A DNA stretch of 64,000 nt from Fibrobacteria bacterium (GCA_035275285.1 DATENA010000068.1:303-64302), one strand, 5' to 3'. Counted from the first letter of the stretch, positions 1,748-29,907 are shown. Notes: a model not told the origin generated them from the sequence alone. Translations and numbers: made by a program.

Positions 1748-2671
1748 ATGGTCCGGATAGCGGCTTGGAATGCAGGGAAACTTTATGCCGACCTATACCG
1801 TCGGCACCGGGCGCAGGTGTACAGGCAGTGCCTGTCCCTGGTCCGGGATCAAGAGGAGGCTTCGCAATTATGCCAGGATGTATTCCTGAACGCCATCCGG
1901 AGCTGGTCCGGGTTCGCGGGGCGTTGCCAGCCGTCCACTTGGCTCATTTCCATCGCCCGCAATGCCTGCCTGCAGCATTTGCGGAGGAAAAAGCTGTACG
2001 CGGCGCGCCTGCAATTGCTTCCCTACCAGGCGACCGGCATGTCCCAGGGCTGCGGCCTTTCCCTGGAGGAAAAGGTCCTCACCGCAGTGCAACTGGGCAG
2101 GACCATGGCCGCTGCGACCCCGGCCACGCGCAGGATCCTCTGGCTCTACTACAAAGAAGGGCTCACCCAACTCGAAATCGCGTCCGTGATGGGCTTGTCC
2201 CGCTCCGCCGTCGGCAAGGTGCTGGCGAAGGTGAACTCCGAATGGTCGCGGGCGCGCCGAAAAGGGCGTCCGGGGAAAGGAACGTCTTTTCCACGTGATC
2301 CTGAACCTCCAGCCGGCGATACAAGATGTCAGGGAGGCCCTTTTCCAGGGGCAATTCCAATTCGCGGAATCGATCCTCAAGCGGCTTTTCGAGGGAACGG
2401 AAAGCGCCAGGGAGATAACGGCCAGGCAACTCGAGAAGGCCGCCCGCGATCGCTGGAAGAAATTCCACCCCTGGCACCTCCACACGGCGGTGGATCCTTT
2501 CCTGGCCTTCCTGCACGCCCATCCGGAAGCGATCCCGGAGACGAGCGTCCAGGGGAGCCGGTTGCAAATCCTGGCGCAAGCGGTGATCCAGAACGGATCG
2601 GAAGGGTCCGATGGGCTGATCCCTTTGCGGGAAGTGGTGGAGGATCTGTACGACGGTTTCCTCAGCGATGA
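1748..2671 (+). CDS. ECF sigma-70 family RNA polymerase sigma factor (true end possibly 2298)
   Basis: Region 2 (LYRRHRAQVYRQC...QDVFLNAIRSWSGFAGRCQPSTWLISIARN) and region 4 (LYYKEGLTQLEIASVMGLSRSAVGKVL). As written, the frame runs 377 nt into the next gene. Confidence 0.85.
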   Translation: MVRIAAWNAGKLYADLYRRHRAQVYRQCLSLVRDQEEASQLCQDVFLNAIRSWSGFAGRCQPSTWLISIARNACLQHLRRKKLYAARLQLLPYQATGMSQGCGLSLEEKVLTAVQLGRTMAAATPATRRILWLYYKEGLTQLEIASVMGLSRSAVGKVLAKVNSEWSRARRKGRPGKGTSFPRDPEPPAGDTRCQGGPFPGAIPIRGIDPQAAFRGNGKRQGDNGQATREGRPRSLEEIPPLAPPHGGGSFPGLPARPSGSDPGDERPGEPVANPGASGDPERIGRVRWADPFAGSGGGSVRRFPQR

Positions 2672-3767
2672 TTTCCGGGAACGGATCAAAGGCCCGATGC
2701 GCGGCAGCGGCTTGATGCCGCCGCTGGTGGAATGGACTTTGGCCCCGGATATGCGCCCGTTCACCTTGGACGAAAGGCGGCTGAAGAAGCTGGGCGTCCA
2801 TTGCGGCGTCATCGGCATGCCGAGGTCTTTCTCGCGGGGCGGGCTCCTGGTATGGGCCTCCCTGGCGCATGAAGTGTGCGGGCATGCGGTGCTGAACGCG
2901 TACCCCGGGGCGCTGGATCCCGTCCGCGCGGAAGTGAACGCCGCCCTGAAGCGGAGGTTCGCCGCGGGTCCCGCCGCCCAGCTTCCCGAATATTGGGACC
3001 GGTGCTTCGAAGAGGCGGCCGCGGACTGCCTGGGAATATTGCGGCTGGGACCGGCCATGGCCGTGGGGTTCATCGGCGCCTTCCGGAGCGGGCGCGCTTT
3101 CCTGGCGGAAAGGAACGGCGCCGCGTCGCTCTCGCCCGGGCTGGGCCGGGAGGATTACGATCGCCACCACCCTTCGGACCTGTTCCGGGCCTTGTTGATG
3201 ACTTCCCTGTGCGGCCGCCTGGCCTTCCGGAAAAGGCAGGAATGGAAAAGGATCCTCATGGCGGAGATCGCCAAGGACTTCGGACCGGCCGCGCCGGGCG
3301 GCATCCCTTGGGAGGACGTCCGGGAGTCGACGGAAATATTCGCCGGATCGTTCCTGGATACGCCCATGGAAAGCTTCTCCGGGCTCTCCATGGGCCGCCT
3401 GCGCAATTGGAGCGACTGGGACGAAGCGACCGCGGCCGCAACGCAGTCCCTGATCGCGATGGAACGGAGGGAAGCCTCCGCCCAGCGGCCCACCGGCCTC
3501 CACGCCACCCACGCGCTCGCCGCCGCCATCCTCCTGGCGGCCTCCGACGGGAACCGGATCCGGATCCCCGTCCTGTTCCGCAGGCTGATGAGCCTGCTCA
3601 AATCCATCCACGCCGAGAAACGGCCGGCCCCGTCGCCCATCGTCCCGGTGCGCGCGCGGCTCAAGCCGGAAAGGAGCGGACCATGTAGCACCCGAACGGA
3701 CCCAAACCGGAAGAAAAACGGAAAAAGACACCGACATCATTCATCATGTAGGCAAATCAAGGAGTAA
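2295..3767 (+). CDS. Uncharacterised zincin-like protein with HExxGH motif (putative metallopeptidase/hydrolase)
   Basis: HEVCGH at 2868-2885 and EEAAAD at 3009-3026; GTG start. Activity is inferred from the motifs only. Confidence 0.7.
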   Translation: MILNLQPAIQDVREALFQGQFQFAESILKRLFEGTESAREITARQLEKAARDRWKKFHPWHLHTAVDPFLAFLHAHPEAIPETSVQGSRLQILAQAVIQNGSEGSDGLIPLREVVEDLYDGFLSDDFRERIKGPMRGSGLMPPLVEWTLAPDMRPFTLDERRLKKLGVHCGVIGMPRSFSRGGLLVWASLAHEVCGHAVLNAYPGALDPVRAEVNAALKRRFAAGPAAQLPEYWDRCFEEAAADCLGILRLGPAMAVGFIGAFRSGRAFLAERNGAASLSPGLGREDYDRHHPSDLFRALLMTSLCGRLAFRKRQEWKRILMAEIAKDFGPAAPGGIPWEDVRESTEIFAGSFLDTPMESFSGLSMGRLRNWSDWDEATAAATQSLIAMERREASAQRPTGLHATHALAAAILLAASDGNRIRIPVLFRRLMSLLKSIHAEKRPAPSPIVPVRARLKPERSGPCSTRTDPNRKKNGKRHRHHSSCRQIKE

Positions 3768-3772
3768 GCATC

Positions 3773-3994
3773 ATGTCCAAGCTCATCTCATTCGCGAACG
3801 ACATCTTGAACTCGGAATCCCTCCAGAAGGATTTCATGCAGGACCCGGAACAGGTCATGAAGGCCCGCGGGCTCTCGGGCGAACAGATCGCCATGCTCAA
3901 GGATAGGAAGAAGACGAACGCCATCAAGGCGATCACCGAAGAGCTCAATTCCTATGAAAAGGTGCTGAAGAACACCCATCGGAATTCCTGGTAG
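3773..3994 (+). CDS. 73-aa peptide with LigA-like/borosin-binding-domain leader and C-terminal Trp; putative RiPP precursor
   Basis: Strong AAGGAG RBS at 3759-3764. Leader pattern F..D....DFMQDPEQVMKARGLSGEQI; short tail ending NSW. The ORF is well supported; the precursor role is inference. Confidence 0.75.
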   Translation: MSKLISFANDILNSESLQKDFMQDPEQVMKARGLSGEQIAMLKDRKKTNAIKAITEELNSYEKVLKNTHRNSW

Positions 3995-4044
3995 GCCCGG
4001 ACCCGGGACCTCCTTCAACTCGAACCCCGGCGGAGACGGACACC

Positions 4045-5103
4045 ATGCGCATGCCCTGGCCGATTGAAAACACTTTCGAACTGCTGCGGGCGGACGCGCC
4101 GGACGAACTCACGCCGGGCGATTCCCTGGCCCGGATGCAAGCCCATCTGAAACGGCTTCCTCCGGGCTCTTCTTCCTATTTCCTGGAATGCAGGCTCGCC
4201 AAGGACGACGACCGGGTCGATTTCGGCGCCTGCTTCCGGTCGCCGCTGGATTCCGCCACCGCCCCGGCCGGAAAGCCGGGCTTCGCGGCGCCTTCCGGGA
4301 ACCGCCCCGAGGACAAGGCCTGGGAGCCCGTGAACCGGGCCTTCTCCCTGTGGGCCTCCCGGACCTCCGGACTGCGGAACCGCGTCCCCTACATCTGGAT
4401 TGAAATGGACCAGGCCGGCCCGCAGCCGGGGGCCGCCGTCCCCGGCTTCCTGTTCTGCGTCGACCCCTCCCTGGCCCGCGTCCCGGAACGTTTCCAAGCC
4501 GGACCGGACGGCCGAAAGGACTTGCTCGCCATCGCCCGGGAAATCGAAAAGGCGCTGTTCGGATCCGGACTCCCGGCCGGGTGCGGCAAGACGTTATGGG
4601 ACTGCCTGACCGCGCTGCCGGCCGAAGGCCGCATCCTGCACATCTCGGCGATGCCGTCCCGGTCTCCGGCCGCCCTCAAACTGAACATCTGCATGCCCAA
4701 GAAAGCTTTGTTCGGGTTCCTGAGGCGCATCCGCTGGCCCGGATCCCCCGCGGAGCTGGAAAAACTTTGGGAGGCGTTCCATCCGTTCATGAGCTGCGCC
4801 AAGATCGATCTGGAAATCAGCGCCGGCGTGTCCCCGCGCCTCGGCTTGGAACTGCATCCCTACAATACGCCGAGAACGGCGCGGAAAGCGGCCCTCCTGC
4901 GCCTGGCCCGCTCCGGAAGCGCCCAGCCCCGCAAGGCCCGCGCCCTGGCGGCCTGGTGCGGCAACGTCACGCGCATGTTTCCCGGGCATCGCTGGCCCAC
5001 GCACATGGTCAAGGAATTCGGGCTCAAGCTCGTATTCGCGGAAACGCGGCCCCTGCAGGCCAAGGGGTACCTGGGGTATTATCCGATCTTCTCCCTGCGC
5101 TGA
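4045..5103 (+). CDS. Putative PT-barrel (ABBA-type) aromatic/peptide prenyltransferase-like protein
   Basis: Motif order FLECRL..VDF, WIEMD, ISAMPSR, RWPGS, KIDLEI...PRLGLE, KLVF...AKGYL matches an uncharacterised family that I associate with the PT-barrel fold. Not confirmed by search. Confidence 0.5.
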   Translation: MRMPWPIENTFELLRADAPDELTPGDSLARMQAHLKRLPPGSSSYFLECRLAKDDDRVDFGACFRSPLDSATAPAGKPGFAAPSGNRPEDKAWEPVNRAFSLWASRTSGLRNRVPYIWIEMDQAGPQPGAAVPGFLFCVDPSLARVPERFQAGPDGRKDLLAIAREIEKALFGSGLPAGCGKTLWDCLTALPAEGRILHISAMPSRSPAALKLNICMPKKALFGFLRRIRWPGSPAELEKLWEAFHPFMSCAKIDLEISAGVSPRLGLELHPYNTPRTARKAALLRLARSGSAQPRKARALAAWCGNVTRMFPGHRWPTHMVKEFGLKLVFAETRPLQAKGYLGYYPIFSLR

Positions 5104-5113
5104 TGCGCCTGCC

Positions 5114-5134
5114 GCCTTTCCCGATCGGAAAGGC
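5114..5134 (+). promoter_or_regulatory. Intra-operon stem-loop (possible mRNA stabiliser or attenuator)
   Basis: GCCTTTCC-CGATC-GGAAAGGC is a perfect 8-bp stem; there is no long U tract. Confidence 0.4.
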
Positions 5135-5164
5135 TTCCCTCCCGAAACGAAAGGAATCATAGAC

Positions 5165-7681
5165 ATGATCGACAATAGAGCCTTGGATCCGACGCCGGAA
5201 TGCTTCGAAGCCTGGTTGATGGGCACCAAAGGCGAGAACGCCGAGGAGCTCGAGAACCTGGTCGTGGAGGCCGTACGGGACACGGCGTATTGGAGGCGGC
5301 ACGTTTTCCCCATGGATCCGCGGCATATCACCGAGGAAATGAAGGAATCCCCGGAATTCAAGCGCTCGGTGGTCAGGCTGAGACAGGAATTCCAATCCCT
5401 TCTATCCTATCTGAAGCGATCCGTGCCCGCCTTCAGCATGAGATATCAGGCCCATATGGGCTGGGATCTGCTCCTGCCGGGCATGCTGGGATATTTCGCG
5501 GGGATGTTACATGGATCAAACAACGTCGCGTACGAAGGGGCGCCCGCGACCACGGTGCTGGAATCCATCGCCGCCCAGGACCTGTGCCGGATGCTCGGGT
5601 TCCGGCCCGCGGACGGCTTGCGCCCCTGGGCCCATTTCACCGGAGGCGGGACCCTGTCCAACATCGAGGGGCTTTGGGCGGCCAGGAACGTGAAATTCCT
5701 ACCTTTTGCCGTCAAGGAAACGTTGCAAGCCTTCGAACGGGAATTCCGCGCGAGCGGCGACGTCCACGGACTTGAGAACATGGCCGAAGCCTTGCGTCTG
5801 GAAGTAGCCTGCCGGCGGCCGGGAGAATTCCGGACCAAGAGCGTCCCCTTCGGCGTACTGACCGCTTGGGAGCTTCTCAATATGGGAGTGGATGAAGCCT
5901 TGGCGCTTCCCGCGAGGGTGGGAGCGATCCTGGACGAAGACCCGGCGGGTCCGGTCCGGGAGCGGTTCGATTCGGCCCTGATAGCCAACGATCTGAACTC
6001 CCGGGGGCTGCGCGCCTTTCCCGCGCCCGGCACGGACGGCATAGGGGGCGCGCCGGTAGTGCTCGCCGCCGGCACGCGCCACTTTTCCATCGAAAAGGCC
6101 GCCTGCCTGCTGGGCATGGGGCAGGAGAACGTGCGCAACGTCTTCGTGGACGAATCCGCCCGCATGGACATGGGGCACCTGGACGGGATCCTGGCCGACT
6201 GCCTGGAACGGCGGATCCCGGTGCTGGCCGTGGTGGCGACCCTGGGGACCACGGAAGAAGGCGCGGTGGATCCCCTCAGCGACATCGTGCAGTTGCGGGA
6301 CAAGTACCGCATGCTGGGCCTGGACTTCGCCCTGCACGTGGACGCGGCCTGGGGAGGCTATCATGCCAGCATCCTGCGCGAGGACTTCCCGATGGACGAC
6401 GTGCTCTTCGTGGTGCCCGCCCAGGAGGACGCGCCCGGCGCGGCCAAGCCCAACCTGCAGGATACCTTGGGCGGGGCCAGGGAGGCGGGCACCCCTTCCC
6501 TGGGCCTTTCCCGCTACGCGCGGCTCCAATACGGCGCCCTGCCCCACGCCGATACCGTCACGGTCGATCCCCACAAGCAGGGCCATATCCCGTTCCCCGC
6601 CGGGGCCATCTGCTACCGCAATTCCGCCCTGAGGAACCTGGTGCGCTTCGGAGCGCCTTACCTGGGCGCCCTCGTGCCGCAAGCCATCCGCCAGGCGGAC
6701 GGCGCCACCGATCCCTTCATGGGCATCTACGGCGTGGAAGGCTCCCGGCCCGGCGCCGCAGCGGCCTCGGTGTTCCTGACCCACCGGCTGGTCAGGCCCA
6801 GCAAGAGCGGATACGGCCGCCTGATCGGCATGGAGATGTTCAATTGCAAGAAGGTATTCGCGTTGATCTCGCGCTTGAACCCGGGCGGCGAGGACTGGAT
6901 CGCGGTGACGCTCGCCGGCGCGGCGGGCCGGGAGGAGGCCTGCCTGCGGGCCGACGCCCTGGGGAACGCGGAAGCCGGCCGGGACCCGGAACTGCTGACG
7001 GCCATGGAAGAGATGGGCCCGGACCTGAACATCCTGGCCTACCTCTTCAACTTCAAGGCCGCGAACCGGTTCAACCAGGACCTGGGCCTGCTGGCGGCCT
7101 TCAACCAGGCCATTTACGACAAGATCCGCCTGCGTCCGGAAAGGGAATACGCGGAGCACAAGCTTATCGTCAGCCAGACGCTCCTGCTGGGGAGGAACTA
7201 CGGTCCACGCTTCCTGAACGGCATGCTCGCGCGCCTCAACCTGGGACTGCGGGCCAACCCGGAGAATTGCGGGCATATCAACCTCTTCGCCCTCCGTTCC
7301 ACCGTGGCCAATCCCTGGCTCACGGATACCGTGGAAGGCTCTTTCCTGCCGCATTTCCGGGAGGAACTGCGGGCGGCCGTCCGGCAGGGACTGGAAGAGG
7401 TCCTGATCATACGCAACGTGATGGAGGAGCTCAAGCGGGAACGCAGTCCTTTGCTGGGGGACCCGATGCTGCCGATCCGGCTCGTTCCCTTCGCGCCGGA
7501 CCTGCTGAGGGGAAAGCTCCCGGAGGAATTCGTCCCTCCCGGAGCGGAAGGGGAAGGCTTGCGCGCCGAAGAGCCGTGCACGCACATGGTCCGGACCCTG
7601 CTGCGCCGGGGCCGTGGCGCGCAGGCGGAGGATCTCCCCGGGGAAGCCCTCAGGAAGTTCAACGAGGTCCAGGCCCGATGA
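5165..7681 (+). CDS. Group II PLP-dependent amino-acid decarboxylase, tyrosine decarboxylase-like
   Basis: TyrDC-type N-terminus (LMGTKGENAE...AYWRR), NNVAYEGAPAT, GGTLSNIEGLWAARN, HVDAAWGGY, PLP-lysine motif VTVDPHKQG, GVEGSRPGA. Confidence 0.9.
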   Translation: MIDNRALDPTPECFEAWLMGTKGENAEELENLVVEAVRDTAYWRRHVFPMDPRHITEEMKESPEFKRSVVRLRQEFQSLLSYLKRSVPAFSMRYQAHMGWDLLLPGMLGYFAGMLHGSNNVAYEGAPATTVLESIAAQDLCRMLGFRPADGLRPWAHFTGGGTLSNIEGLWAARNVKFLPFAVKETLQAFEREFRASGDVHGLENMAEALRLEVACRRPGEFRTKSVPFGVLTAWELLNMGVDEALALPARVGAILDEDPAGPVRERFDSALIANDLNSRGLRAFPAPGTDGIGGAPVVLAAGTRHFSIEKAACLLGMGQENVRNVFVDESARMDMGHLDGILADCLERRIPVLAVVATLGTTEEGAVDPLSDIVQLRDKYRMLGLDFALHVDAAWGGYHASILREDFPMDDVLFVVPAQEDAPGAAKPNLQDTLGGAREAGTPSLGLSRYARLQYGALPHADTVTVDPHKQGHIPFPAGAICYRNSALRNLVRFGAPYLGALVPQAIRQADGATDPFMGIYGVEGSRPGAAAASVFLTHRLVRPSKSGYGRLIGMEMFNCKKVFALISRLNPGGEDWIAVTLAGAAGREEACLRADALGNAEAGRDPELLTAMEEMGPDLNILAYLFNFKAANRFNQDLGLLAAFNQAIYDKIRLRPEREYAEHKLIVSQTLLLGRNYGPRFLNGMLARLNLGLRANPENCGHINLFALRSTVANPWLTDTVEGSFLPHFREELRAAVRQGLEEVLIIRNVMEELKRERSPLLGDPMLPIRLVPFAPDLLRGKLPEEFVPPGAEGEGLRAEEPCTHMVRTLLRRGRGAQAEDLPGEALRKFNEVQAR

Positions 7682-10600
7682 CCGAACCCCGGGACGGCTA
7701 CAAGGTGTTCGATACCGTGCGGGACGGAAGGTCGACCCTGCTGGTCCGTTGCGTGCGCGTGCGCGACAACCGGCGGGTGATGCTGCGGATCCCCAAACCC
7801 GACCACCCGGGCGGCGAAGGGCTGCGCGGCCTCCGCAATGAGTTCGAGATCACCCAGGGCCTGGACGTCCCCGGCGTCCTCAGGGCCATGGAGATCGATC
7901 GCAACGGCCGGATGCCGGCGCTGGTGCTGGAGGATTTCGACGGGATGACCGCGCGCCAATCCCTGGGCAACCGCGCCATGGAAACGGAGAGCTTCCTGCG
8001 CTTCGCTTTGCAGTTGACGGAGATCCTGGCGGGCGTGCACTCCCAGGGCGTGGTCCACGGGGGATTGAACCCGTCCTGCATCCTCCTGTCCCGGAGCGAC
8101 GGCACGGTGAGGTTGACCGGGTTCGATCAGGCGTTCGGACCGGTGCCGAGGCAGGCTTCGATCACCTGGGACGGGGAACCGGGGGACAACCTGGCCTACA
8201 TCTCCCCGGAACAGACCGGCCGGTTCGAGGGCCTGGTGGATCACCGCACGGATCTCTACTCCCTGGGCATCCTCTGGTATGAAATGCTGGTGGGCATGGC
8301 TCCCGTCCAGAGCGAGGACGAGGGCGAAATCGTGGCCTTCCACCTGGCCCTGGAGGCCGTGCCGCCCTGCGAGCGGAACCCCGCCGTGCCCAGGATCCTT
8401 TCGGATATCGTGATGAAGCTCATTTCAAAGTCCGCCGACCAGCGCTACGCCAGCGCCCGCACCCTCAAGGCCGATCTGGAGCGGTGCCTGTGGGGCCTGG
8501 AGAATTTCCGGACCATCGAGCCGTTCCCGCTGGGCCAGGGGGATCTGCCCGAACGCTTCCCCTATCCGCAAAAGCTTTACGGACGCGAGCAGGAGATCCG
8601 CAGGCTGGTGCAGGGCTTCCAGCGTTCCCTGGACGGCGGCCGGGAACTGATCCTGATCTCGGGACCGGCCGGAGCGGGGAAGTCCTCCCTGGTCCAGGAG
8701 CTCCGGTTCCACGTGGGCAGCAAAGGCGGCTATTTCTCGGCGGGCAAATCGGACCCGCTCTCGCGGGAACTCCCCTATAGCGCCGTCACCCAGGCCTTCC
8801 GGGGCCTCATCCAGCAGATCCTGACCGAGAGCGAGGAGCGCCTGGCCGGTTGGCGCAACGATCTGCGGGAAACCCTGGGCGCTTCCGCCCGCATGCTGGC
8901 CGACGTGGTGCCCGAACTGGACCTGCTGATCGGGAAGCCCCCCGGCATGGCCGGCCCGGGACCGGCCGAGGCCCAGGGCCGGATGCATTTCACCTTCCTG
9001 GCCTTCTTCTCCGTATTCGCCAAGCGGGGATACCCTTTGGTCCTGTTCCTGGACGACCTGCATTGGTCCGACGTGGCGTCCCTGGACCTGATCAAGGCCA
9101 TCTTCTCCATCGATTCGGATTCCCGGCCCATGGTCATCGGCGCGTACCGGGAGAACGAGGTGGGCCAGGGGCACGCCTTGTCGGCCATGATCCGGGATCT
9201 CCGGAAAAAAAAGGTGCCCATCTCCACCATCCCGGTCCACCCGCTCCCGGTCGGATCCCTCAACCGATACCTGGCGGACCTGTTCCGGTGCCGGCCGGAA
9301 CACAGCCTGGACCTGGCCATGGCCGTGCACGGGAAAACCGACGGCAATCCTTTTTTCGTGATCGAATTCCTGAAGGCGATCCAGGGAGAAGGCCTCCTCA
9401 TCGCCCCTTCCGGTCCCGCCGGACGGGAAGACTTTCCCATCCGGCGGGACCGATGGCATTGGAATCTGCAAGGCATCCGGAAAATGCGCATCACGGAGAA
9501 CGTGATCGATCTGATCGTCAACCGGCTGCGGGCCCTGTCCCCGGAAACGCAGCGTTCCCTGGCGCTGTGCGCCTGCCTGGGAGGGAGGTTCGACCTGGAG
9601 GACCTGGTCCTGCTCGACGACAGGCCGGAGGCGGTGGTCTTCGCCGGCCTCGCCAAGCCCGTGGAAGAAGGCTGGCTGGTCCCCGAATCGGAGACGGGCT
9701 TCGCGTTCCAGCACGATCGCATCCGGCAATCCGCCTATGCCTTGCTCTCGCCCGCGGAGAAGGCGGCGACCCATCTCCGCATCGGCAGGGCCCAATTGGA
9801 TCAGGCGCGCCCGGAGGCCCTCGACGATTCCGTGTTCGAAATCGCCGGGCACCTCAACCGGGGCTGGACCGCGGGAGCGACGGAAGCCGAACGGCGCCTC
9901 TATGCGGACATCAACCTGCGCGCCGCCCGCAAAGCCGTGGCCGCGGCCGCCTTTTCGGAGGCATTGGTCTACTTCGGGGCCGCCATCGACTTGCTGGGCC
10001 CGGGGAAAAACGCGGCCGGGATGGCCTACCCCTTGTTCCTGGGAAAAGGGGAATGCGAATACCTCAACGCGGATTTCGCGGTGGCCAGGGCCAGCTTCGC
10101 CAAGGCCATGGAGGTGGCCGAGACGCCGCTGGAAAAGGCGTCGGTGTTCGCCGCCCGGGCCCGCATGAGCGAGCACGCTCTCGACCATGCCGCCACGCTC
10201 GAGGACGGCATCCGGGGGCTGCGCATGCTGGGCATAAGCATGCCCGCCTCGCCCGGCAAGGCCCGGCTGGCGTTGGAACTGCTGCGCGTCCTGGCGGCCA
10301 AGGGCCTGCGCGGACCCGCGGAACTGGCCCGCATCCCCGATCGCTGGACGCCGGAGGCGGCGGCCGGCATGGGCCTGCTGACCAACCTCTGGTCCATGGC
10401 CTTCCTGACCGCGAACACATCGCTGCAAGGGATGGTGGTGCTGAAGATGCTGCTGGGAAGCCTGCGTTACGGGAACTCGGACGTTTCCGCGGTGGCGTAC
10501 GCCTGCTACGGCGTGCTCCTCTTCTCCGTATTCAGGAGGGCCGGGGTCGGGGAATCCTACTGCCGCATGGCCATGAGGCTCGCGGAAAGGTATCCCAACC

Positions 10601-12678
10601 CTTCCGCCAAGGGCAAGGTCTACTTCATCTACGCCTCTTTCTTCAGCCCTTACAACCATTCCCATCAGCGGACCCTGGAATACCTCCGGGAAGCCTTCCG
10701 CCATTGCATGGAGGGCGGGGACCCCGTCTATGCCGGATACTGCAACGACGTGGTGCTCTACATCATGCCGTTCTCCAGCTTCACCTTGGAAGACATCGAA
10801 GCGGAGGCGGACCGGATCGCCGGTTTCGCCTCGGGCACCGAGAACAAAGGCAACGCGGAAACCCTCCTGGTGGCGCGCAGATGGATGGACCTGTTGCGCA
10901 GCGATGCGTCCACCTGCCTCGCCCGCCTGGAGGAAGGGCGGACGTTCGAAGATCAACTTACGGATCCGATGGAAAAAGGCTATTTCCAGATGCTGGAGAT
11001 CCAGATGCTGGTGCTCTTCCGGCGCTACGGCGAGGCGCTTCGCGTCTCGGAGCGGCTGCGCGGGTGCCCCATCATCGATCCCGCGGGAGGTTTCCGGCCC
11101 TTCTATTGTTTCCACCGCGTGCTCATCCTGTCCGCCCTCCACGACGTGCTGCCGCGGAAGGAAAGGGGAAAGCGGCGCCGGGAGATGATCGGCCACCGGG
11201 ACCGGCTGGGAAGCTGGGCGCGGCGGAGCCTGGAGGGTTTCAGCCATATGCATGCCTTGGCCGAGGCGGAAATCCGCAAGCTCGACGGGGACATGGCCGG
11301 AGCGCAGGCGCAATATGCCCGTTCCCTGGCCTGCGCCCGCGCGCAAGGGTACCTGCAATTCGCCGCCCTGGCCGCGGAAATGGCGGGACGCCTGCATTCG
11401 GAATGCGGGGATCCGGCCAAGAGCAAGGAGTTCCTGCGCGATGCGTACCACGGCTATCTCGCCTGGGGGGCCCCGGCCAAGGCCCAGGAACTCGCGGCTT
11501 CCCATCCCGGCGTGGTGAACGTAAAACCGTTCCGCGTCCCGGCGGATCCGCCCGATCGGGACGGCAACGGGAGCGCGCTCGCGTCCTGGCTCCGGCCCCT
11601 GGACCTGAAAGCGATCCTGAAAGCCTGCCAGGCCATGTCCGGCGAGCTGGCCATGAGCAAGCTTCCCCGGAAACTGCTGCGCATCATCCTGGAAAACGCG
11701 GGCGCGCAAAGGGGCGCCCTTCTCCTGGAGAAGAAGGGCCGCCTGATGGTGGAGGCGCTGGAGAGCCTGGACCAGGAGGGGTCCGAACCTTTCCAAGCGG
11801 TACCGGTGGAGGAGTGCGGGGAATTGTCCGCGGCCATCGTGCACTACGCGGCCAGGACCGCCAAACCCGTGATCCTGGCCGATGCTTCCCGGGAAGGGAT
11901 CTTCACCGGCGACGGGTACGTGCAGGCGCGCAAGCCCAAGTCCGTCCTGTGCATGCCGCTGATGAACCAGGGGAAGACGGGGGGCATGCTGTACCTGGAG
12001 AACAACCGCATCGCGGACGCCTTCACGCCCGACAGGCTGGAAGTGATGGAAGTACTGTGCGGCCAGGCCGTGGTCTCGCTCGCGAACGCGGGTTTCCACG
12101 CCATGCAGATGGAGCTGCTGCAGGGGAAGATCAAACCGCATTTCCTGTTCAACGCCCTCAATTCCATCGCCCATCTGACCAAGCTCGATCCGGGCAACGC
12201 CGAGGAAGCCATCCTGCAGCTCTCCCACCTCTACCGGTACATCCTGGCCGCCTCGGAAAACAAAATGGTGAAGCTCAGCCAGGAATTGGAAATCATCAAG
12301 GCCTACCTCTTCATAGAGAAAATGCGCTTCCAGGACAAGCTTGAATTCTCCATCGTCACGGAAGGCGACATCGACAGCGTCACCATCCCGGGCCTCATCA
12401 TCCAGCCCCTGGTCGAGAACAGCATCCGGCACGGCGTCTCCCCGAAAATCGGCGGGGGCAAGGTGACGGTCCGCGCCGAGATCGGGGACTCGATCTGCCG
12501 CATCACGGTGGAGGACGACGGCGTGGGCTGGGGCAAATCCCATCCGGGGGGCGCGGGCTACGGCCTCAAGAGCATCCAGGAGCGGCTGCACCTGGTCTTC
12601 GGCAACGAATATTCCTTCGGCATCCGGCGGGAGGGCGGCGTCCTGGTGGAGTTCTCCTTTCCGGTGGCCAGGCCCTGA
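7678..12678 (+). CDS. Hybrid sensor: Ser/Thr kinase-like + AAA ATPase + helical region + GAF + LytS-type His kinase/HATPase (1666 aa)
   Basis: ATGA overlap with the upstream stop. Kinase fold with YISPEQTGR and DLYSLG; Walker A GPAGAGKS; Walker B LFLDDLHW; GAF (SVLCMPL...LYLEN); H-box KPHFLFNALNSI; QPLVENSIRHG; GYGLKSIQERL. Confidence 0.92.
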   Translation: MTEPRDGYKVFDTVRDGRSTLLVRCVRVRDNRRVMLRIPKPDHPGGEGLRGLRNEFEITQGLDVPGVLRAMEIDRNGRMPALVLEDFDGMTARQSLGNRAMETESFLRFALQLTEILAGVHSQGVVHGGLNPSCILLSRSDGTVRLTGFDQAFGPVPRQASITWDGEPGDNLAYISPEQTGRFEGLVDHRTDLYSLGILWYEMLVGMAPVQSEDEGEIVAFHLALEAVPPCERNPAVPRILSDIVMKLISKSADQRYASARTLKADLERCLWGLENFRTIEPFPLGQGDLPERFPYPQKLYGREQEIRRLVQGFQRSLDGGRELILISGPAGAGKSSLVQELRFHVGSKGGYFSAGKSDPLSRELPYSAVTQAFRGLIQQILTESEERLAGWRNDLRETLGASARMLADVVPELDLLIGKPPGMAGPGPAEAQGRMHFTFLAFFSVFAKRGYPLVLFLDDLHWSDVASLDLIKAIFSIDSDSRPMVIGAYRENEVGQGHALSAMIRDLRKKKVPISTIPVHPLPVGSLNRYLADLFRCRPEHSLDLAMAVHGKTDGNPFFVIEFLKAIQGEGLLIAPSGPAGREDFPIRRDRWHWNLQGIRKMRITENVIDLIVNRLRALSPETQRSLALCACLGGRFDLEDLVLLDDRPEAVVFAGLAKPVEEGWLVPESETGFAFQHDRIRQSAYALLSPAEKAATHLRIGRAQLDQARPEALDDSVFEIAGHLNRGWTAGATEAERRLYADINLRAARKAVAAAAFSEALVYFGAAIDLLGPGKNAAGMAYPLFLGKGECEYLNADFAVARASFAKAMEVAETPLEKASVFAARARMSEHALDHAATLEDGIRGLRMLGISMPASPGKARLALELLRVLAAKGLRGPAELARIPDRWTPEAAAGMGLLTNLWSMAFLTANTSLQGMVVLKMLLGSLRYGNSDVSAVAYACYGVLLFSVFRRAGVGESYCRMAMRLAERYPNPSAKGKVYFIYASFFSPYNHSHQRTLEYLREAFRHCMEGGDPVYAGYCNDVVLYIMPFSSFTLEDIEAEADRIAGFASGTENKGNAETLLVARRWMDLLRSDASTCLARLEEGRTFEDQLTDPMEKGYFQMLEIQMLVLFRRYGEALRVSERLRGCPIIDPAGGFRPFYCFHRVLILSALHDVLPRKERGKRRREMIGHRDRLGSWARRSLEGFSHMHALAEAEIRKLDGDMAGAQAQYARSLACARAQGYLQFAALAAEMAGRLHSECGDPAKSKEFLRDAYHGYLAWGAPAKAQELAASHPGVVNVKPFRVPADPPDRDGNGSALASWLRPLDLKAILKACQAMSGELAMSKLPRKLLRIILENAGAQRGALLLEKKGRLMVEALESLDQEGSEPFQAVPVEECGELSAAIVHYAARTAKPVILADASREGIFTGDGYVQARKPKSVLCMPLMNQGKTGGMLYLENNRIADAFTPDRLEVMEVLCGQAVVSLANAGFHAMQMELLQGKIKPHFLFNALNSIAHLTKLDPGNAEEAILQLSHLYRYILAASENKMVKLSQELEIIKAYLFIEKMRFQDKLEFSIVTEGDIDSVTIPGLIIQPLVENSIRHGVSPKIGGGKVTVRAEIGDSICRITVEDDGVGWGKSHPGGAGYGLKSIQERLHLVFGNEYSFGIRREGGVLVEFSFPVARP

Positions 12679-13457
12679 TGGTCTACCGCACCTTGATCGT
12701 CGAAGACGAGAAGAACGCCCGGGACCGGCTGCGCAGCCTCCTGAAAGGATGGGAAGAGCTGATTGAAGTGATCGGGGAAGCGGAGAACGGGCCCGAAGCC
12801 ATCCGCAAAATCAAGGAGATGGACCCGGACCTGATCTTCCTGGACATCAAGATGCCGGGCATGGACGGGTTCGACGTCATCCAGAACCTCGAAAAGCAGC
12901 CCATCATCATCTTCACCACCGCTTACGATGAGCACGCCCTGGAAGCCTTCTCCACCAACGCCATCGGCTATCTGCTCAAGCCCGTGAGCCACGAGGACAT
13001 CGGCAGGACGTTCAAGAAGCTGATGAACCTGGAAAAGCAGGTGTCGGAAAAGAGCCACCGGGGCGACCGGGACAAGCGCAGCGACGAGACCGTCCTGTCC
13101 CTGGTCCGGGAACTGCTCGTGCCCCAGTACCAGAACATCATCTCCTGCAAGGTAGGGGACAAGCTCCAGTTCATCAAGACCCCGGAGATCCTCTATTTCA
13201 AATCCGACAACCGCTCCACCTTCCTGTTCACCAGCACGGGCAAGAAATTCATCGTGGACGCGCCCTTGATCGAAATGGAGAAACGGGTCAACCCCAAGGA
13301 ATTCATCCGCATCCGCCGGGGGACCATCGTGAACCTCGCCTGGATATCCGAGATCCGCAGGACGTACAACGGAAGGCTCAAGGTCATCCTGATGGACAAG
13401 CAAGGGACCGAGCTGGAAGTCAGCCGGGGATACGTGGACGCGCTCAAGGCGTTCTAG
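12678..13457 (+). CDS. LytTR-family DNA-binding response regulator
   Basis: Receiver (IVEDE, IFLDIKMP, FTTAYD, YLLKP) plus LytTR domain (FIRIRRGTIVNL, EVSRGY). TGATG overlap with the kinase gene. Confidence 0.95.
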   Translation: MVYRTLIVEDEKNARDRLRSLLKGWEELIEVIGEAENGPEAIRKIKEMDPDLIFLDIKMPGMDGFDVIQNLEKQPIIIFTTAYDEHALEAFSTNAIGYLLKPVSHEDIGRTFKKLMNLEKQVSEKSHRGDRDKRSDETVLSLVRELLVPQYQNIISCKVGDKLQFIKTPEILYFKSDNRSTFLFTSTGKKFIVDAPLIEMEKRVNPKEFIRIRRGTIVNLAWISEIRRTYNGRLKVILMDKQGTELEVSRGYVDALKAF

Positions 13458-13484: not shown

Positions 13485-13725
13485 AGTGGATCTCTGCAGA
13501 ATTCCTCGCCCGCCCCCCTCCGGGCGCGCGCATTGCCGTTACCCTGGCCCACAGAGCATCCACCCCAGGTCCGCTTGGGTTTCTTGAGCCTTTGAAAAGC
13601 GGGAATCCGCGGTGGGAAAAACCCGCCGGCAGGTTCATTTTTCCTTTTCGGCCTGCTTTTTCCGGGCCATGAGGATATTTTGGAAAGGTATTCGCATCGA
13701 GGGTTCATCGGGGGGAAGCAGCGTC

Positions 13726-16700
13726 ATGAAAAGCGTCAAGCTGGGATTTTTCTTTTTGGTCATTTTGCTGGTCAAGCATGCGGCCGCGCAGCAGATCATT
13801 TTCAAGCCGCCGCGCCCCACCAACATCTGGAAAGCGGACACGCTGTACATCGGCGCCTCTTTTACGCGCAACTCCTTCGATCCGGTTTCCGTCTGGCTCA
13901 TCGGCAATCAAGCCGGCTGGGTGGGAAGCCTGTATTTCATCGTGCCCAAGACGAACGAAGAGGTCTTTCTCTTCACCAACAAGGGCACCACGAACGTGCG
14001 CAACGTCCTGAGCGACAAGTACGATATCCCCGTAGGCGATACCGTGTACTTCCTCTACAAGGTGACACAGCCCGCAAAGGACAATAACCCGAGCGAAGCC
14101 AGCCGCCTGCCCAAATACACGGGCCCCAACATCCCGGGCGAAAGCAAATTCGTCACCCAGCCCGCCAGCGCGGCCTACGGCCACCGCTGGTCCGTGGCCG
14201 GCCGCGTCAACGACAGCATCGTGCAATTCGGGTTCGAGGACAACGTCAACCCCGCGGGGGACACCCACCCTTCGGACATGGACTTCGACGACATCGTGTT
14301 CGGCACCACCCTGTCGCTGGCCAGCGAAGAAGTGCAGCCGCACATCTCCTTCACGGACAAGGCGGGGAACATCCTGGCCCCCGGAGCCTTCTATTCCCCC
14401 GAGAACGACACCATCTACGTCACCTACACGGATGACTATGTCCGGGCCAACCTGTCCAAGGACATCGTATTCAACGTCAGGAACCGCAACGACCTGGCCG
14501 CAGCGGACCTGGACACCTTCTCGGTGGTCTCCGTTTCCCATAACGGCGCCGTGGGTACTTGGAAGCTGAAGGTTCCCATCCAGGAGAAGCCGGGCATTCC
14601 GGGGGACAAGCTCCTGCAATCCTTCTTCCTGGGCGAGGTGACGGCCACCGTCAAGACCCACAACCGTTTAGGCGCGCCGGACAACAATTCCGTATCGGCC
14701 AACCTCAAGGTGGCCTATCCGGACAAACCCGAAACCGTTACGATCCTGAACTGCGCCGATTCGGCCGCGGACATCGTCCGCACCACCAACTGCATCCGGA
14801 TCAAGGCCGGGGACCAGAGCTTCACCCGCGGCCAGGACACCGTCTGGGCGGAAGTGAAATGCGACGGCTCCGGGGACATCATCGGCAAAGTGCCCTTGAT
14901 CGAACAGACCGGGGGCGGATACGTTTCCGGGAACATCGTGAAGAACGAGACCAATCCGCCGGTCAGCGATCAAATCCTCTCCTGCAAATCGAGCGACAAC
15001 GTCACGGTCACCTACGTGGACGAAGTGTACAACAACCGCGTCACGGACAAGAAGACCTTCAGCGGCAATGCCGCGGAAGGCTTCACCTACGTGGAAACCG
15101 CGGCCCCCGGCACCGTGATCACCCAGATCACGGACGGCGCCGCCCCCACCTTCACCGCCGTCGTCAAGGCGCCCACCCCCACCGTGGACGTGGTCGATCA
15201 GATCAACGTGGTGATGACCAGTTCCCAAGGGGACATCGAAACCTTCAAAGCCACGGAAACCGGGCCCAATACCGGCGTCTTCACCGTGGACATCCCCTAT
15301 GGGTTCCAGACCATCCCGGTCGTTTCCGGTTCCGGCAAGGTCGACGGGTTCCTGGATCCCACCCAGACCGTCACAGGCGTGGCCGTGACGGGCGTGGCCA
15401 CCGTCAACAATAAGGAATACACGGCGGCCATCACCCTGAAGCCCGCTTTGAACGCGGTCAAGAATGCCTATATCAAGGACGTGGACGGCGACGGCCGCGG
15501 GGACAAGGTGTACATCGTGTTCAGCCGCCCCCTGGAAGCCTTGCCCGCCACCCTGACGCCCACCTATTGGAACGTCGGCGGGGATCCGAACTTCGACAAT
15601 GCCGCCCCTCCGGTCCTCTCCCTCCTGGACGGCGCGCTCAACACCCTGGTGGCGGATTTCTCCGCCGCTCCTTTCCCCAAGGGGGCCACCTCCATCCCGG
15701 CCACCGCCCAGAAGCCCTATGCCACGCTCCCCGGCGACCCCATCTTCGGCGGCCAGAAGCCCGTCATCGCGGACTCCATGGGACCCATCATCGTGGCGGC
15801 GGTCATCAAGCCTTTCAACAACCTCACGGTGGTGGCCGGCAGCACCGAGCTGAACGTGGACACCCTCCGGATCACCCTTTCCGAAAGCATCAAGACCCAG
15901 GGGGGCATGCAGGGCCTGCTCCGGTTCTCCAAGACCGTCAACGGCGCATGCACGGATTACGCCCATTCCGTGCCCGTGGTCCCCAATGCGGAACCCACCA
16001 TCAACCCCGACGGTTCCTACACCTTCCTGATCGCCGCCGGCAAGGGCCCTTCGCCCCTGGCCGGGGATTGCGTGTACGTCAATGTGAACGGAACCTATAC
16101 GGATCTGTTCGGCAACCTCCCTCCCGAGCACGGCGAACCCATCCAGGGTCCCAAGCCGGCCCGGGAGATCGAGCTGTTCCGCGGTTATCCTCCCGTCGCC
16201 GGCATGAATCCCAGTTCGCCCGGGTTCGTGGTGGTCAACAACGATCCCCAGTCCGATCTCGGCAGCGAATATTCCACCAAGTCGGGCGCGGGATACCAGA
16301 CCAAATGGGTCCCTCCGGCGGACTTCCCCACCGGCGCGTACGATGCGGTGAAGAACCCCTACGTTCCCGTGATTCCCGGAGCGATTACGGCCCCGGTGGA
16401 GCCGGGCAAGGATGCCGGGACTTTCTCCGTCATGCCTCCGGGCATCAGCACGGTCCAGGTCATTTCCACGGGCGAATACATCGCCGACGTGGCCATCTTC
16501 GACAACCTGGGGAATTTCGTCAAGAGCTTCAAGCAAGCCTTCGGATACCGCGGGGAGCTGAACAACCAGGAACGCGCCGCCAAGCGCGGCCTGGTCAGCT
16601 ACCTGGTCTGGGATCTGCGGAACAACAGTGGCCAGAAGGCCGGGCAGGGTGTCTACGTATGGAAGGTGGTGTTCCGCTTCAAGGCAGGCAAGCAGGAAAT

Positions 16701-16734
16701 CCGCTACACCCGTACGGGCGTCATGAGAAACTAG
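13726..16734 (+). CDS. Large secreted Fibrobacterota-type protein with DUF4114-like motif and T9SS/FlgD-like C-terminal domain
   Basis: Sec signal (MKSVKLGFFFLVILLVKHAAA), GFEDN...DMDFDDIVF, AYIKDVDGDGRGD, C-terminal IFDNLGNFV...WDLRNNSGQKAGQGVYVWKV. Confidence 0.8.
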   Translation: MKSVKLGFFFLVILLVKHAAAQQIIFKPPRPTNIWKADTLYIGASFTRNSFDPVSVWLIGNQAGWVGSLYFIVPKTNEEVFLFTNKGTTNVRNVLSDKYDIPVGDTVYFLYKVTQPAKDNNPSEASRLPKYTGPNIPGESKFVTQPASAAYGHRWSVAGRVNDSIVQFGFEDNVNPAGDTHPSDMDFDDIVFGTTLSLASEEVQPHISFTDKAGNILAPGAFYSPENDTIYVTYTDDYVRANLSKDIVFNVRNRNDLAAADLDTFSVVSVSHNGAVGTWKLKVPIQEKPGIPGDKLLQSFFLGEVTATVKTHNRLGAPDNNSVSANLKVAYPDKPETVTILNCADSAADIVRTTNCIRIKAGDQSFTRGQDTVWAEVKCDGSGDIIGKVPLIEQTGGGYVSGNIVKNETNPPVSDQILSCKSSDNVTVTYVDEVYNNRVTDKKTFSGNAAEGFTYVETAAPGTVITQITDGAAPTFTAVVKAPTPTVDVVDQINVVMTSSQGDIETFKATETGPNTGVFTVDIPYGFQTIPVVSGSGKVDGFLDPTQTVTGVAVTGVATVNNKEYTAAITLKPALNAVKNAYIKDVDGDGRGDKVYIVFSRPLEALPATLTPTYWNVGGDPNFDNAAPPVLSLLDGALNTLVADFSAAPFPKGATSIPATAQKPYATLPGDPIFGGQKPVIADSMGPIIVAAVIKPFNNLTVVAGSTELNVDTLRITLSESIKTQGGMQGLLRFSKTVNGACTDYAHSVPVVPNAEPTINPDGSYTFLIAAGKGPSPLAGDCVYVNVNGTYTDLFGNLPPEHGEPIQGPKPAREIELFRGYPPVAGMNPSSPGFVVVNNDPQSDLGSEYSTKSGAGYQTKWVPPADFPTGAYDAVKNPYVPVIPGAITAPVEPGKDAGTFSVMPPGISTVQVISTGEYIADVAIFDNLGNFVKSFKQAFGYRGELNNQERAAKRGLVSYLVWDLRNNSGQKAGQGVYVWKVVFRFKAGKQEIRYTRTGVMRN

Positions 16735-17469: not shown

Positions 17470-18063
17470 CTAAAGCGATATCCCCTCCGCGAAGGCGCCC
17501 GGGAACTTCCGGCGCAAGCGCTCCACGATCAGGCAACGGGCCCGGTGCAGGCGCACCCGGATCAAGGTCGGGGAAATGCCCAGGGCTTCGGCGGCCTCTT
17601 CGCCGCTCAGGCCTTCCAGGTCCCTGAGCCGATAGGCTTCCCGGTACAGGGCGGGGATCTCTTCCGCAGCCTCCCCGATCCAGCGGATCAGGCGGGATTG
17701 ATGCAATGCCTCGTCGGCCAAGGGCGCGGGCGATTCCCATTCCCGGCCCTGCGCCTCCGCTTCCGGAACCGGGAAGCCGGGCTGGTATTTTTCCGAGAGG
17801 CGATCGCACACTTTGTGGTAGGTCAGAGAATACACCCAGGTGGTCAGTTTCGACTTGGCTTCGAAGCGGGGCAAGGCCCGGTGCGCGGCCAGGAAGGTTT
17901 CCTGCAGGACGTCCTGGACCAGCTCCGGATCCCGGAGGTAGCGGCCGACGTACCGCGATAGCGGGGGGTGAAGGGCGCGCACCAGTTTCCGGAATGCCCG
18001 GGACGCGGCCGGAGCCCCGCCCAACAAGGCTTTCAGGAAGAAAGGGGAATTGATTTCCTGCAT
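17470..18063 (-). CDS. ECF sigma-70 family RNA polymerase sigma factor
   Basis: DVLQETFLAAHRALPRFEAKSKLTTWVYSL and YRLRDLEGLSGEEAAEALGISPTLIRVRLHRAR. The start could alternatively be 18135. Confidence 0.9.
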   Translation of the reverse strand: MQEINSPFFLKALLGGAPAASRAFRKLVRALHPPLSRYVGRYLRDPELVQDVLQETFLAAHRALPRFEAKSKLTTWVYSLTYHKVCDRLSEKYQPGFPVPEAEAQGREWESPAPLADEALHQSRLIRWIGEAAEEIPALYREAYRLRDLEGLSGEEAAEALGISPTLIRVRLHRARCLIVERLRRKFPGAFAEGISL

Positions 18064-18329
18064 CGGATCGGGGGGGCTTTTCACCACCTTCACCGCCACT
18101 TCCGTCCCCGCCGGTCTCTCCGCGGCTGCTTCCATCCGAATCTCCTGGTCCTTGGGTCCGCCGTCCTGCTCCCAAGATACCCGGAGGCGGACCCGGGCAT
18201 CCACGCGGGATGGCGATTTCCGTATACATTTGTTAACGGGCAATGGGCCCGTGGGGTGGCGGTTCCGGCCCCCTTTAGGTATACTGGAATAACCGCTTCA
18301 CCGTCCAACCCAGCGGTCCGAAAAAGACC

Positions 18330-29845: not shown

Positions 29846-29907
29846 TCGGAATCCGGAACGGTCCCCGGATCCGGGCCGTCCCGGACCGGGGGCTCCGCCG
29901 GGACCCG

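Follow-up and report, generated by a model that had tools for sequence, protein, structure and literature searches.

A 64,000-nucleotide stretch of DNA from a Fibrobacteria bacterium (GCA_035275285.1 DATENA010000068.1:303-64302), referred to here as the window, carries seven tightly packed, co-oriented genes at positions 1748-13457, as established by open reading frame (ORF) listing and translation. The cluster combines a short peptide ending in Trp with a predicted barrel-fold prenyltransferase (PT), a putative metallopeptidase, an aromatic amino acid decarboxylase, and a regulatory module. An original prediction had proposed a peptide-scaffolded biosynthesis and sensing system, in which an aromatic residue is prenylated on the peptide, released, and decarboxylated to an amine that the sensor detects. 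The genes and two flanking features, with the shorthand used throughout, are listed below.

1117-1509, + strand: 130-aa ORF 5' of the sigma gene, possibly the first gene of the unit (conserved position)
1748-2671, + strand: extracytoplasmic function (ECF)-type sigma-70 factor (Sigma70_r2, Sigma70_r4); true end uncertain
2295-3767, + strand: g2, 490-aa metalloprotein with HExxGH, putative releasing peptidase (motif)
3773-3994, + strand: g3, 73-aa precursor or scaffold peptide ending in ...THRNSW (ORF, codon use, conserved Trp)
4045-5103, + strand: g4, 352-aa PT-barrel (ABBA-fold) protein, putative peptide Trp prenyltransferase (AlphaFold2 and Foldseek)
5165-7681, + strand: g5, 838-aa group II pyridoxal phosphate (PLP) decarboxylase of the PcncAAAD/tyrosine decarboxylase (TyrDC) type (PF00282, 6EBN)
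7678-12678, + strand: g6, 1666-aa soluble sensor with pseudokinase, AAA_16 (STAND-like), GAF, LytS-type His_kinase, and HATPase_c domains (Pfam)
12678-13457, + strand: g7, 259-aa ORF, Response_reg and LytTR regulator (Pfam)
13564-13579, + strand: terminator-like hairpin 3' of g7 (consensus scan)

Pfam, NCBIfam, motif, and fold results agreed with the gene and domain labels first given to all seven genes. Read directly, the intergenic gaps are 5 nt (g2/g3), 50 nt (g3/g4), and 61 nt (g4/g5), followed by an ATGA overlap at 7678-7681 (g5/g6) and a TGATG overlap at 12676-12680 (g6/g7). These junctions had been described correctly, but a further GTGA overlap, at 2295-2298, did not hold: its TGA (2296-2298) is not in the sigma frame, and the sigma ORF stays open to 2671. 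The hairpin at 13564-13579 was the sole well-placed terminator-like site in a consensus scan, in which such sites were not enriched over shuffles. Sequencing runs matching the locus consisted of rhizosphere metagenome DNA, and the run search matched no RNA run.

Among the scanned neighbours, reaching approximately 13 kb downstream, no transporter or exporter gene was present, as had been anticipated. The cluster itself yielded no peptide aminoacyl-tRNA ligase (PEARL), macrocyclase, lanthionine synthetase, or radical SAM enzyme. Pfam and NCBIfam detected no LanB/PEARL domain in its proteins, and none was listed on homologous contigs.

The central enzyme of the cluster, g4, was assigned by structure. 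Seven family members gave no relevant Pfam or NCBIfam match, even at E ≤ 10, and g4 had no sequence match in the PDB by either single-sequence or profile search. A word-indexed search gave 11 relatives, and an AlphaFold2 model built from an alignment with relatives (pLDDT 79, pTM 0.82) displayed a DSSP secondary-structure order of (aabb)x5. When this model was compared with the PDB using Foldseek, 50 of 50 matches with E ≤ 0.001 were ABBA aromatic prenyltransferases (best E 7e-7, probability 0.99-1.00, TM-score 0.4-0.5, identity approximately 10%). The matches encompassed FamD1, AmbP1/3, CloQ, and NphB, the tryptophan prenyltransferases IptA, 5-DMATS, and 6-DMATS, and the peptide prenyltransferases LimF, PirF, and DciF. 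The five aabb repeats and the uniformity of these matches bear out the earlier "PT-barrel-like" call. Nearly every predicted barrel strand also carries invariant polar residues, including E, D, H, K, R, and Y, with i, i+2 spacing (E48, D59, E120/D122, C138/D140, H199, K212/N214, D255, E269, K328, and K340/Y342), the pattern expected of a functional barrel lumen if the model is correct. As modelled, g4 is a PT-barrel protein at the level of fold and an orphan at the level of sequence.

An exhaustive profile search placed g4 in a large family, with 3817 representative clusters at E ≤ 0.001 and 892 at 1e-30. No Pfam or NCBIfam model covered the domain in any of 20 sampled members. Some members are approximately 700 aa long with two matched stretches (tandem barrels), and one, P0274, is fused to a 2-oxoglutarate-Fe(II) oxygenase domain (relatives are given by our L and P handles). 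A metagenome scan with a four-sequence PT alignment returned no match.

The presumed substrate of this enzyme is the 73-aa peptide g3. It looks like a real gene under purifying selection because GC content is 0.84 at third codon positions (GC3) versus 0.30 at second positions (GC2), an AGGAG lies 8 nt 5' of its ATG, and dN/dS against the L001 orthologue is 0.11, with dS near saturation. The N-terminus carries LxxFxxDPxxVMxxxGL, a helical motif resembling those of IniB_N and nitrile hydratase-like leader peptides (NHLP). Matches to the corresponding models were sub-threshold (IniB_NTERM, 7e-5; LigA, 0.008; an NHLP-clan model, 0.037). Likewise, hhalign aligned FxxxLxxDPxxVMxxxGL between the Trp-ended peptides and NHLP leaders without reaching significance (E 0.017, probability 2.6%).

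Peptides in the orthologous position have bodies that cannot be aligned, yet Trp is the last residue of all that could be read. The endings are ..THRNSW (window and L001/L006), ..DNEWFW (L015), ..RLKKSW (L016), ..RLKKYW (P0016 contig), and ..RYNDPW (L003). Those from clusters with a decarboxylase have no GG and no other conserved cleavage motif, such that the last residue alone is conserved. The peptide gene lies directly 5' of the PT gene in the window, L001, L015, L016, and L003, is also 5' of it in L009, L010, and L013, and is found within approximately 2 kb in the Chloroflexota loci. Across 255 heuristic gene calls over the compared DNA, 11 ended in Trp; nine of these were PT-adjacent peptides, versus 2 of the 246 other calls. 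Because nine of the 11 were these peptides, and because Trp-containing cores occur beside PT genes elsewhere, Trp, usually as the very last residue, appears to be the feature under selection. This is what one would expect if Trp accepts a prenyl group from the barrel enzyme, and it agrees with the proposal that the terminal Trp is the working end of g3, invariant while the remaining peptide diverges. We consider it likely that the cluster is of the ribosomally made, post-translationally modified peptide (RiPP) kind and that its PT-barrel enzyme modifies the terminal Trp.

The association of these genes is not particular to the window. Five further lineages, with identities of 34-65% in the PT and 43-60% in the decarboxylase, share the order g2, peptide, PT, decarboxylase, and sensor, extended by a LytTR regulator on contigs that are long enough. 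Homologues do therefore co-occur elsewhere, and in the same order. The lineage of P0002/P0014 (65% PT identity) contains a 130-aa ORF, sigma factor, g2, a 73-aa peptide, PT, and a cut-off gene. That of L001/L006 (46%) contains sigma factor, g2, peptide, PT, an 831-aa decarboxylase, and a pseudokinase. The closest complete cluster was found in a Fibrobacteres metagenome-assembled genome, L015 (41%), with g2, a 53-aa peptide, PT, decarboxylase, an identically built sensor of 1598 aa, and a LytTR regulator. L016 (34%) has g2, a 45-aa peptide, PT, decarboxylase, and an AAA_16-GAF-His_kinase sensor, with its LytTR regulator on the opposite strand. Shorter views came from P0016 (g2, a 328-aa protein, and decarboxylase) and L017 (PT and decarboxylase, after which a long gene begins).

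The decarboxylase g5 matched PF00282 (Pyridoxal_deC; 1.7e-20, 73.5 bits against a cut-off of 27) and, under the equivalog cut-off, the tyrosine decarboxylase model TIGR03811 (3.8e-81). Its best solved relative was PcncAAAD of Psilocybe cubensis (6EBN; E 5.6e-102, residues 12-683), followed by tyrosine decarboxylases of the Enterococcus and Lactobacillus types (7CWX, 1.5e-67). PcncAAAD decarboxylates Phe, Tyr, Trp, and kynurenine, using His442-Lys443 and the loop residue Tyr471 (PMC13062060). The 6EBN motifs that hold these catalytic residues, DPHK and APY, are matched in the alignment by DPHK and a Tyr at +28 in g5, so g5 is probably an active decarboxylase. The TyrDC-like assignment is thus upheld as an aromatic amino acid type with the catalytic His-Lys and Tyr kept. 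In a neighbour-joining tree of the 120 best matches, six cluster-linked decarboxylases formed an exclusive clade, and the nearest outsider, P0021, sits in an unrelated gene context. Group II PLP decarboxylases form an aldimine with the α-amine of the residue that loses CO2 and thus need a free amino acid. Because of this requirement, an enzyme of the g5 type could not act on a C-terminal residue that is still peptide-bound.

A candidate for releasing such a residue is g2, which contains LAHEVCGHAV (HExxGH). The protein is rare. Only four, including that of the window, were found among 5.8 billion sequences, in addition to those of L015 and L016, and a metagenome scan with the g2 alignment gave one 1.3-kb contig. 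Ten residues are invariant in six homologues: H192, E193, G196, H197, E240, D244, H292, H406, D374, and D376. The motif reads H192-E-V-C-G-H197 and is followed, approximately 43 residues on, by E239-E240-A-A-A-D244, in which E239 is not invariant; HExxGH with (E)ExxxD at this spacing resembles the zinc-site motif pair of dipeptidyl peptidase III (DPP III, M49), HExxGH plus EExx[A][ED]. Comparison with M49 and other peptidases gave no Pfam match at E ≤ 10 and no NCBIfam match, and single-sequence, profile, and fragment searches of the PDB were negative. The protein is predicted to be all-helical. An AlphaFold2 model from a four-sequence alignment was poor (pLDDT 53), and Foldseek with this low-confidence model found nothing below E 0.4. 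As neither fold nor sequence searches gave a match, the assignment of g2 as a putative peptidase stays at the level of motif.

The distribution of g2 is closely tied to that of the decarboxylase. The window, L001/L006, L015, L016, and the P0016 contig contain the two together, whereas nine of nine PT loci of other kinds contain neither. The P0002/P0014 contig has g2 and a cut-off gene 3' of the PT, and the L017 contig lacks the upstream DNA. In sum, g2 and the decarboxylase co-occur in every decarboxylase-type cluster with upstream DNA in view. On the P0016 contig, a JGI sequence, the g2 homologue is fused in frame with the Trp-ended peptide (..RLKKYW), whereas the two are separate genes in L016. 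We also considered that the N-terminal ~100 residues of g2 form an anti-sigma domain, but rejected this idea because L015 has the extension with no upstream sigma gene. The short forms of g2, in L016 and P0016, have no neighbouring ECF sigma factor.

The last two genes encode a LytS/LytTR-type two-component core (PF06580 and HATPase_c in g6, receiver and LytTR in g7). In g6, Pfam identified Pkinase, AAA_16, GAF, His_kinase (PF06580, LytS type; 1.5e-24), and HATPase_c (1.6e-5) domains. The kinase domain has VHGGLNPSC in place of HRDLKPxN, with no HRD aspartate, and GFD in place of DFG; these degenerate motifs justify the label of pseudokinase. No 19-residue window of g6 reached a Kyte-Doolittle value of 1.6, in keeping with the earlier remark that it has no obvious membrane segment. 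The 5TM-Lyt N-terminal membrane sensor domain was not found in g6, where Pkinase and AAA_16 make up the N-terminus. Matches for g7 included Response_reg (3e-24) and LytTR (7.5e-21), along with BtsR (1.5e-43) and LytR (4.7e-40), both below the cut-offs of those models. L015 repeats the architecture of g6 3' of its decarboxylase, as does L016 except for the Pkinase domain, and a LytTR regulator is a conserved partner in both. A pseudokinase-AAA protein also follows the PT gene in the L003 cluster, which has no decarboxylase. The regulatory link therefore appears to be with the peptide and PT pair rather than with the amine alone.

The sigma factor gene is less widely conserved: the two closest lineages have it, but L015 and L016 do not. 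Its protein has Sigma70_r2 (1.5e-16), Sigma70_r4 (1.2e-6), and TIGR02937 (3.6e-20) matches, with the sigma domains confined to residues 13-161. The overlap of the ORF with g2, in the sequence as it stands, is 125 codons long. Because the sigma factors of relatives (204-234 aa) end at or near the start of the next gene, the extension in the window may be either an assembly indel or a non-functional tail. A homopolymer-rich stretch at approximately 2250-2290 is a candidate region for the indel. Further upstream, the 130-aa ORF at 1117-1509 had no Pfam or NCBIfam match but is 32% identical (E 1e-18) to an ORF in the same position in L006 (L006:63-473), and the P0002 contig also has a 130-aa ORF in this place 5' of sigma. 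The unit may thus begin at this ORF, approximately 630 nt before position 1748.

PT homologues outside of these clusters are accompanied by precursors of a more classical kind. In Chloroflexota (L007, L008, L011, L012, and L014), they neighbour an NHLP-type precursor with GG and a hydrophobic core of 5-8 residues that terminates in Trp, together with a class I methyltransferase. Core sequences include MIIMW, MIIVW, IAMIIW, and IGGMVTLW, and the system suggests a prenylated, possibly carboxy-methylated lipopeptide reminiscent of yeast a-factor. The Vicinamibacteria locus L010 has a precursor reading GG-KNGWCSPV. The Chloroflexota and Vicinamibacteria precursors have a weak precomputed NHase_alpha match and, read from their sequences, look like NHLP leaders with a GG site. 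Adjoining the peptide and PT genes of L010 is a cytokinin-dehydrogenase-like FAD oxidase (L010:7312-8724, - strand; FAD_binding_4 and Cytokin-bind). Enzymes of this type oxidise N-prenyl amines, so its presence would fit prenyl chemistry.

In Myxococcus dinghuensis (L009:6846-15147), a 95-aa precursor with core SCTWGANCGK lies between two PT-barrel paralogues, followed by a weakly squalene-hopene-cyclase-like protein, a PhyH dioxygenase, a JmjC protein, and a 383-aa ORF, a richer tailoring set around the same PT family. The L003 locus (L003:6765-9807) pairs a PT-barrel gene with a 165-aa peptide that has two copies of a leader-like motif and ends in ..YNDPW. It also encodes a secreted protein of 488 aa that has no Pfam match but contains the haem-c motif CxxCH (as SSCMGCH), followed by the pseudokinase-AAA sensor, and a Pkinase-receiver-guanylate cyclase gene lies upstream.

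A full-text literature search found no published description of this enzyme set, in agreement with the claim that no RiPP class is known to have it. Its parts nonetheless have precedents. The cluster resembles PalPXQ and the ComQXPA system of Bacillus in having a small Trp-ended precursor, a PT (putative here), and a histidine kinase beside them. The kinase ComP sits in the membrane and its partner ComA is a regulator of the LuxR type, whereas g6 is a soluble pseudokinase-AAA-GAF-LytS protein and g7 is of the LytTR type. Neither PalPXQ nor ComQXPA has a decarboxylase or HExxGH protein, both of which are present in the window. PalPXQ of Paenibacillus alvei groups a kinase with an NHLP precursor, whose C-terminal Trp is conserved, and with the prenyltransferase PalQ, which requires this terminus and is all-helical and related to isoprenyl diphosphate synthases (PMC10853753). 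PalQ and ComQ thus differ from g4, which is predicted to be an ABBA barrel.

In fold, g4 resembles the cyanobactin F-family (KgpF, PagF, LimF, and PirF) and MppC, with which it shares the PT barrel and, putatively, the indole of a ribosomal-peptide Trp as the acceptor. MppC is an ABBA prenyltransferase that acts on Trp in a lanthipeptide RiPP and depends on a Nif11-type leader (PMC12715784). Unlike in these systems, g4 has no detectable sequence similarity to their enzymes, the acceptor would be the very last residue of a variable peptide, and macrocyclase and lanthionine synthetase genes are lacking. For g5, the closest comparisons are PcncAAAD and the Enterococcus-type TyrDC, which share its group II PLP fold family and the His-Lys and Tyr residues. 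Unlike PcncAAAD, g5 has no fungal calcium-binding C-terminal domain, and it also lacks the EF hands of many bacterial relatives.

Sacrifice of a gene-encoded peptide is familiar from PQQ and mycofactocin, where a dedicated peptidase excises one or two modified residues, C-terminal ones in mycofactocin. Those pathways differ in using radical SAM enzymes, having no prenyltransferase or PLP decarboxylase, and yielding redox cofactors. The ammosamide pearlin offers another parallel, with chemistry on a scaffold C-terminal Trp and, if g2 is a peptidase, release by a metalloprotease. In that pathway, a PEARL installs the C-terminal Trp of the AmmA scaffold, which is modified and then released by the TldD/E-like Amm12/13 and the M20 enzyme Amm19 for further tailoring (PMC12715798). 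Pearlins differ from the cluster, which has no PEARL (a LanB-like aminoacyl-tRNA ligase) and a Trp that is gene-encoded, so that the scaffold would be consumed rather than recharged. The putative prenylation also differs from the oxidation and amination of ammosamide, and g2 is unrelated to TldD/E or M20. Since C-terminal Trp prenylation (PalPXQ) and metalloprotease release of a scaffold Trp (ammosamide) are both known, the cluster would be a variant on existing kinds of chemistry, ComX/PalX-like prenylation and ammosamide-type scaffolded Trp chemistry, and is not a categorically new system.

These comparisons are compatible with a four-step model. The g3 peptide would present its C-terminal Trp to g4, which would prenylate the indole. 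Next, g2 would cut the modified Trp from the scaffold, a role suggested by its motif and by its strict co-occurrence with the decarboxylase. Because g5 needs a free α-amine, its substrate would be the released prenyl-Trp, which it would convert into prenyl-tryptamine, the putative product. Finally, g6 and g7, joined by the ECF sigma factor in the closest lineages, would control the module or respond to the product, a role based on their travelling with the biosynthetic genes. Direct support comes from the fold, the synteny, the invariant Trp, the intact decarboxylase site, and the dedicated clade; prenyl transfer, hydrolysis, the decarboxylase substrate, and the link between product and sensor are steps we infer. 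Taken in full, with Trp prenylated on the peptide, released, and then decarboxylated, we judge the pathway to have an even chance of being correct. The original prediction therefore stands for the PT fold, terminal Trp, synteny, and decarboxylase, and is conditional for the peptidase, the product, its sensing, and co-transcription. More tentatively, and with some doubt, the system could represent a PEARL-independent one-residue donor peptide found in several phyla. Its gene-encoded C-terminal Trp would be prenylated by the orphan PT-barrel family, removed by a metallopeptidase of a new kind, and decarboxylated, and the resulting membrane-permeant prenyl-tryptamine would be sensed inside the cell through a soluble STAND-GAF-LytS kinase and LytTR regulator. 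If so, both the biosynthetic route and the class of bacterial indolamine signal would be new.

Several points weigh against the pathway. The enzyme roles of all cluster genes are predictions. For g4, identity to known prenyltransferases is approximately 10%, TM-scores are 0.4-0.5, and Pfam and the PDB show no sequence relation; inactive PT-barrel proteins such as PatF also exist. The cluster encodes no prenyl-donor synthase, and co-transcription of the seven genes is presumed. Pfam, PDB, and Foldseek searches detected no relation of g2 to any peptidase, and the additional His and Asp residues that are invariant in it could also belong to a binuclear centre, whether redox or hydrolytic. Approximately six lineages are known, mostly as short metagenomic contigs. 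Lastly, as the PT loci with no decarboxylase show, sister systems can stop at a modified peptide.

This last point leads to a rather unlikely alternative in which g4 lipidates the terminal Trp and the pathway ends with a ComX/PalX-type pheromone, a prenylated peptide. Here g2 would be a leader or maturation protease trimming the N-terminal part, and g5 would use a free aromatic amino acid to make an unrelated biogenic amine or another signal. ComX-type pheromones are hypervariable around a conserved Trp, as are the peptides here, and the peptide is the product at the sister loci with classical NHLP-GG-core precursors. PalPXQ and ComQXPA likewise pair a Trp-prenylated peptide with a kinase (PMC10853753). 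Such a role would not account for a decarboxylase clade that is exclusive to these clusters and strictly co-occurs with g2, nor for peptides in which no GG or cleavage motif is conserved and only the last residue is. The scanned neighbours also include no exporter, and the sensor has no membrane segment. Doubts about g2 give rise to a second alternative, which we regard as quite unlikely: that it is a metal-dependent oxidase or other tailoring enzyme acting on Trp or prenyl-Trp to give a different product, with the free amino acid coming from a housekeeping protease or elsewhere. With D244, H292, H406, D374, and D376 also invariant, there are more ligands than a mononuclear zincin would require; the protein is all-helical like the haem-oxygenase-like di-iron enzymes, and it has no peptidase family match. 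Nevertheless, HExxGH with (E)ExxxD approximately 43 residues on resembles the DPP III pair, and a releasing hydrolase is the simplest explanation for strict co-occurrence with an enzyme that needs a free amino acid. The g2-peptide fusion in P0016 fits both the peptidase and the oxidase.

Prenylation might instead take place on a free small molecule, in the manner of the DMATS enzymes acting on Trp or tryptamine, with the Trp-ended peptide in a regulatory or chaperone role, partnering for instance the sensor or sigma factor. The presence of the free-Trp prenyltransferases IptA and 5-/6-DMATS among the Foldseek matches is compatible with this, as are known bacterial pathways from prenyl-Trp to small indoles, and a decarboxylase acting straight on Trp would need no peptidase. 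We consider it improbable, as it leaves unexplained both the invariant C-terminal Trp and the Trp-containing NHLP cores beside PT homologues in four other phyla, and provides no role for g2 or for its fusion to the peptide. As co-transcription is presumed, the genes might be chance neighbours with no joint function, but this is hardly credible given an order kept at 34-65% PT and 43-60% decarboxylase identity, a decarboxylase clade exclusive to the clusters, and genes that overlap or sit close together. Chance juxtaposition was rejected on the basis of synteny across lineages.

The DNA beyond the cluster contains further genes. Directly 3' of it, the gene at 13612-16734 (+ strand), which the LytTR regulator may target, encodes a secreted protein of 1040 aa. 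Pfam showed no domain in this protein, and its C-terminus bears a very weak likeness to proteins sorted by the type IX secretion system (E 0.06). Two more ECF-type sigma factors are encoded at 17470-18243 (- strand) and 28625-29962 (- strand), one with DUF6596. A TIGR02147 "Fsuc_second" family protein (1e-83) lies at 18330-19169 (+ strand); together with the rhizosphere runs and the Fibrobacteres origin of L015, it suggests a host resembling Fibrobacterota. At 19914-20798 (- strand), 6.5 kb downstream, is a 4,5-DOPA extradiol dioxygenase of the YgiD type (5e-92), an enzyme related to aromatic amino acids, for which no evidence of linkage to the cluster was found. Two pairs of Phd/YefM antitoxin and PIN-domain toxin are present at 27392-28050 and 30546-31189 (+ strand).

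The cluster would add to ribosomal-peptide chemistry a large PT-barrel family with no curated model, a metalloprotein family of a handful of members, and a dedicated decarboxylase clade. For genome mining, the terminal-Trp rule offers an easy criterion, and it might also yield a new tool for lipidating proteins at the C-terminus. If the proposed pathway is true, the peptide would be a disposable handle for making a small lipophilic amine without an aminoacyl-tRNA ligase, linking the logic of RiPPs, the logic of pearlins, and biogenic-amine metabolism. Being tightly linked to a soluble multi-domain sensor, the cluster offers a testable case of cytoplasmic sensing of a self-made metabolite in uncultured rhizosphere bacteria.

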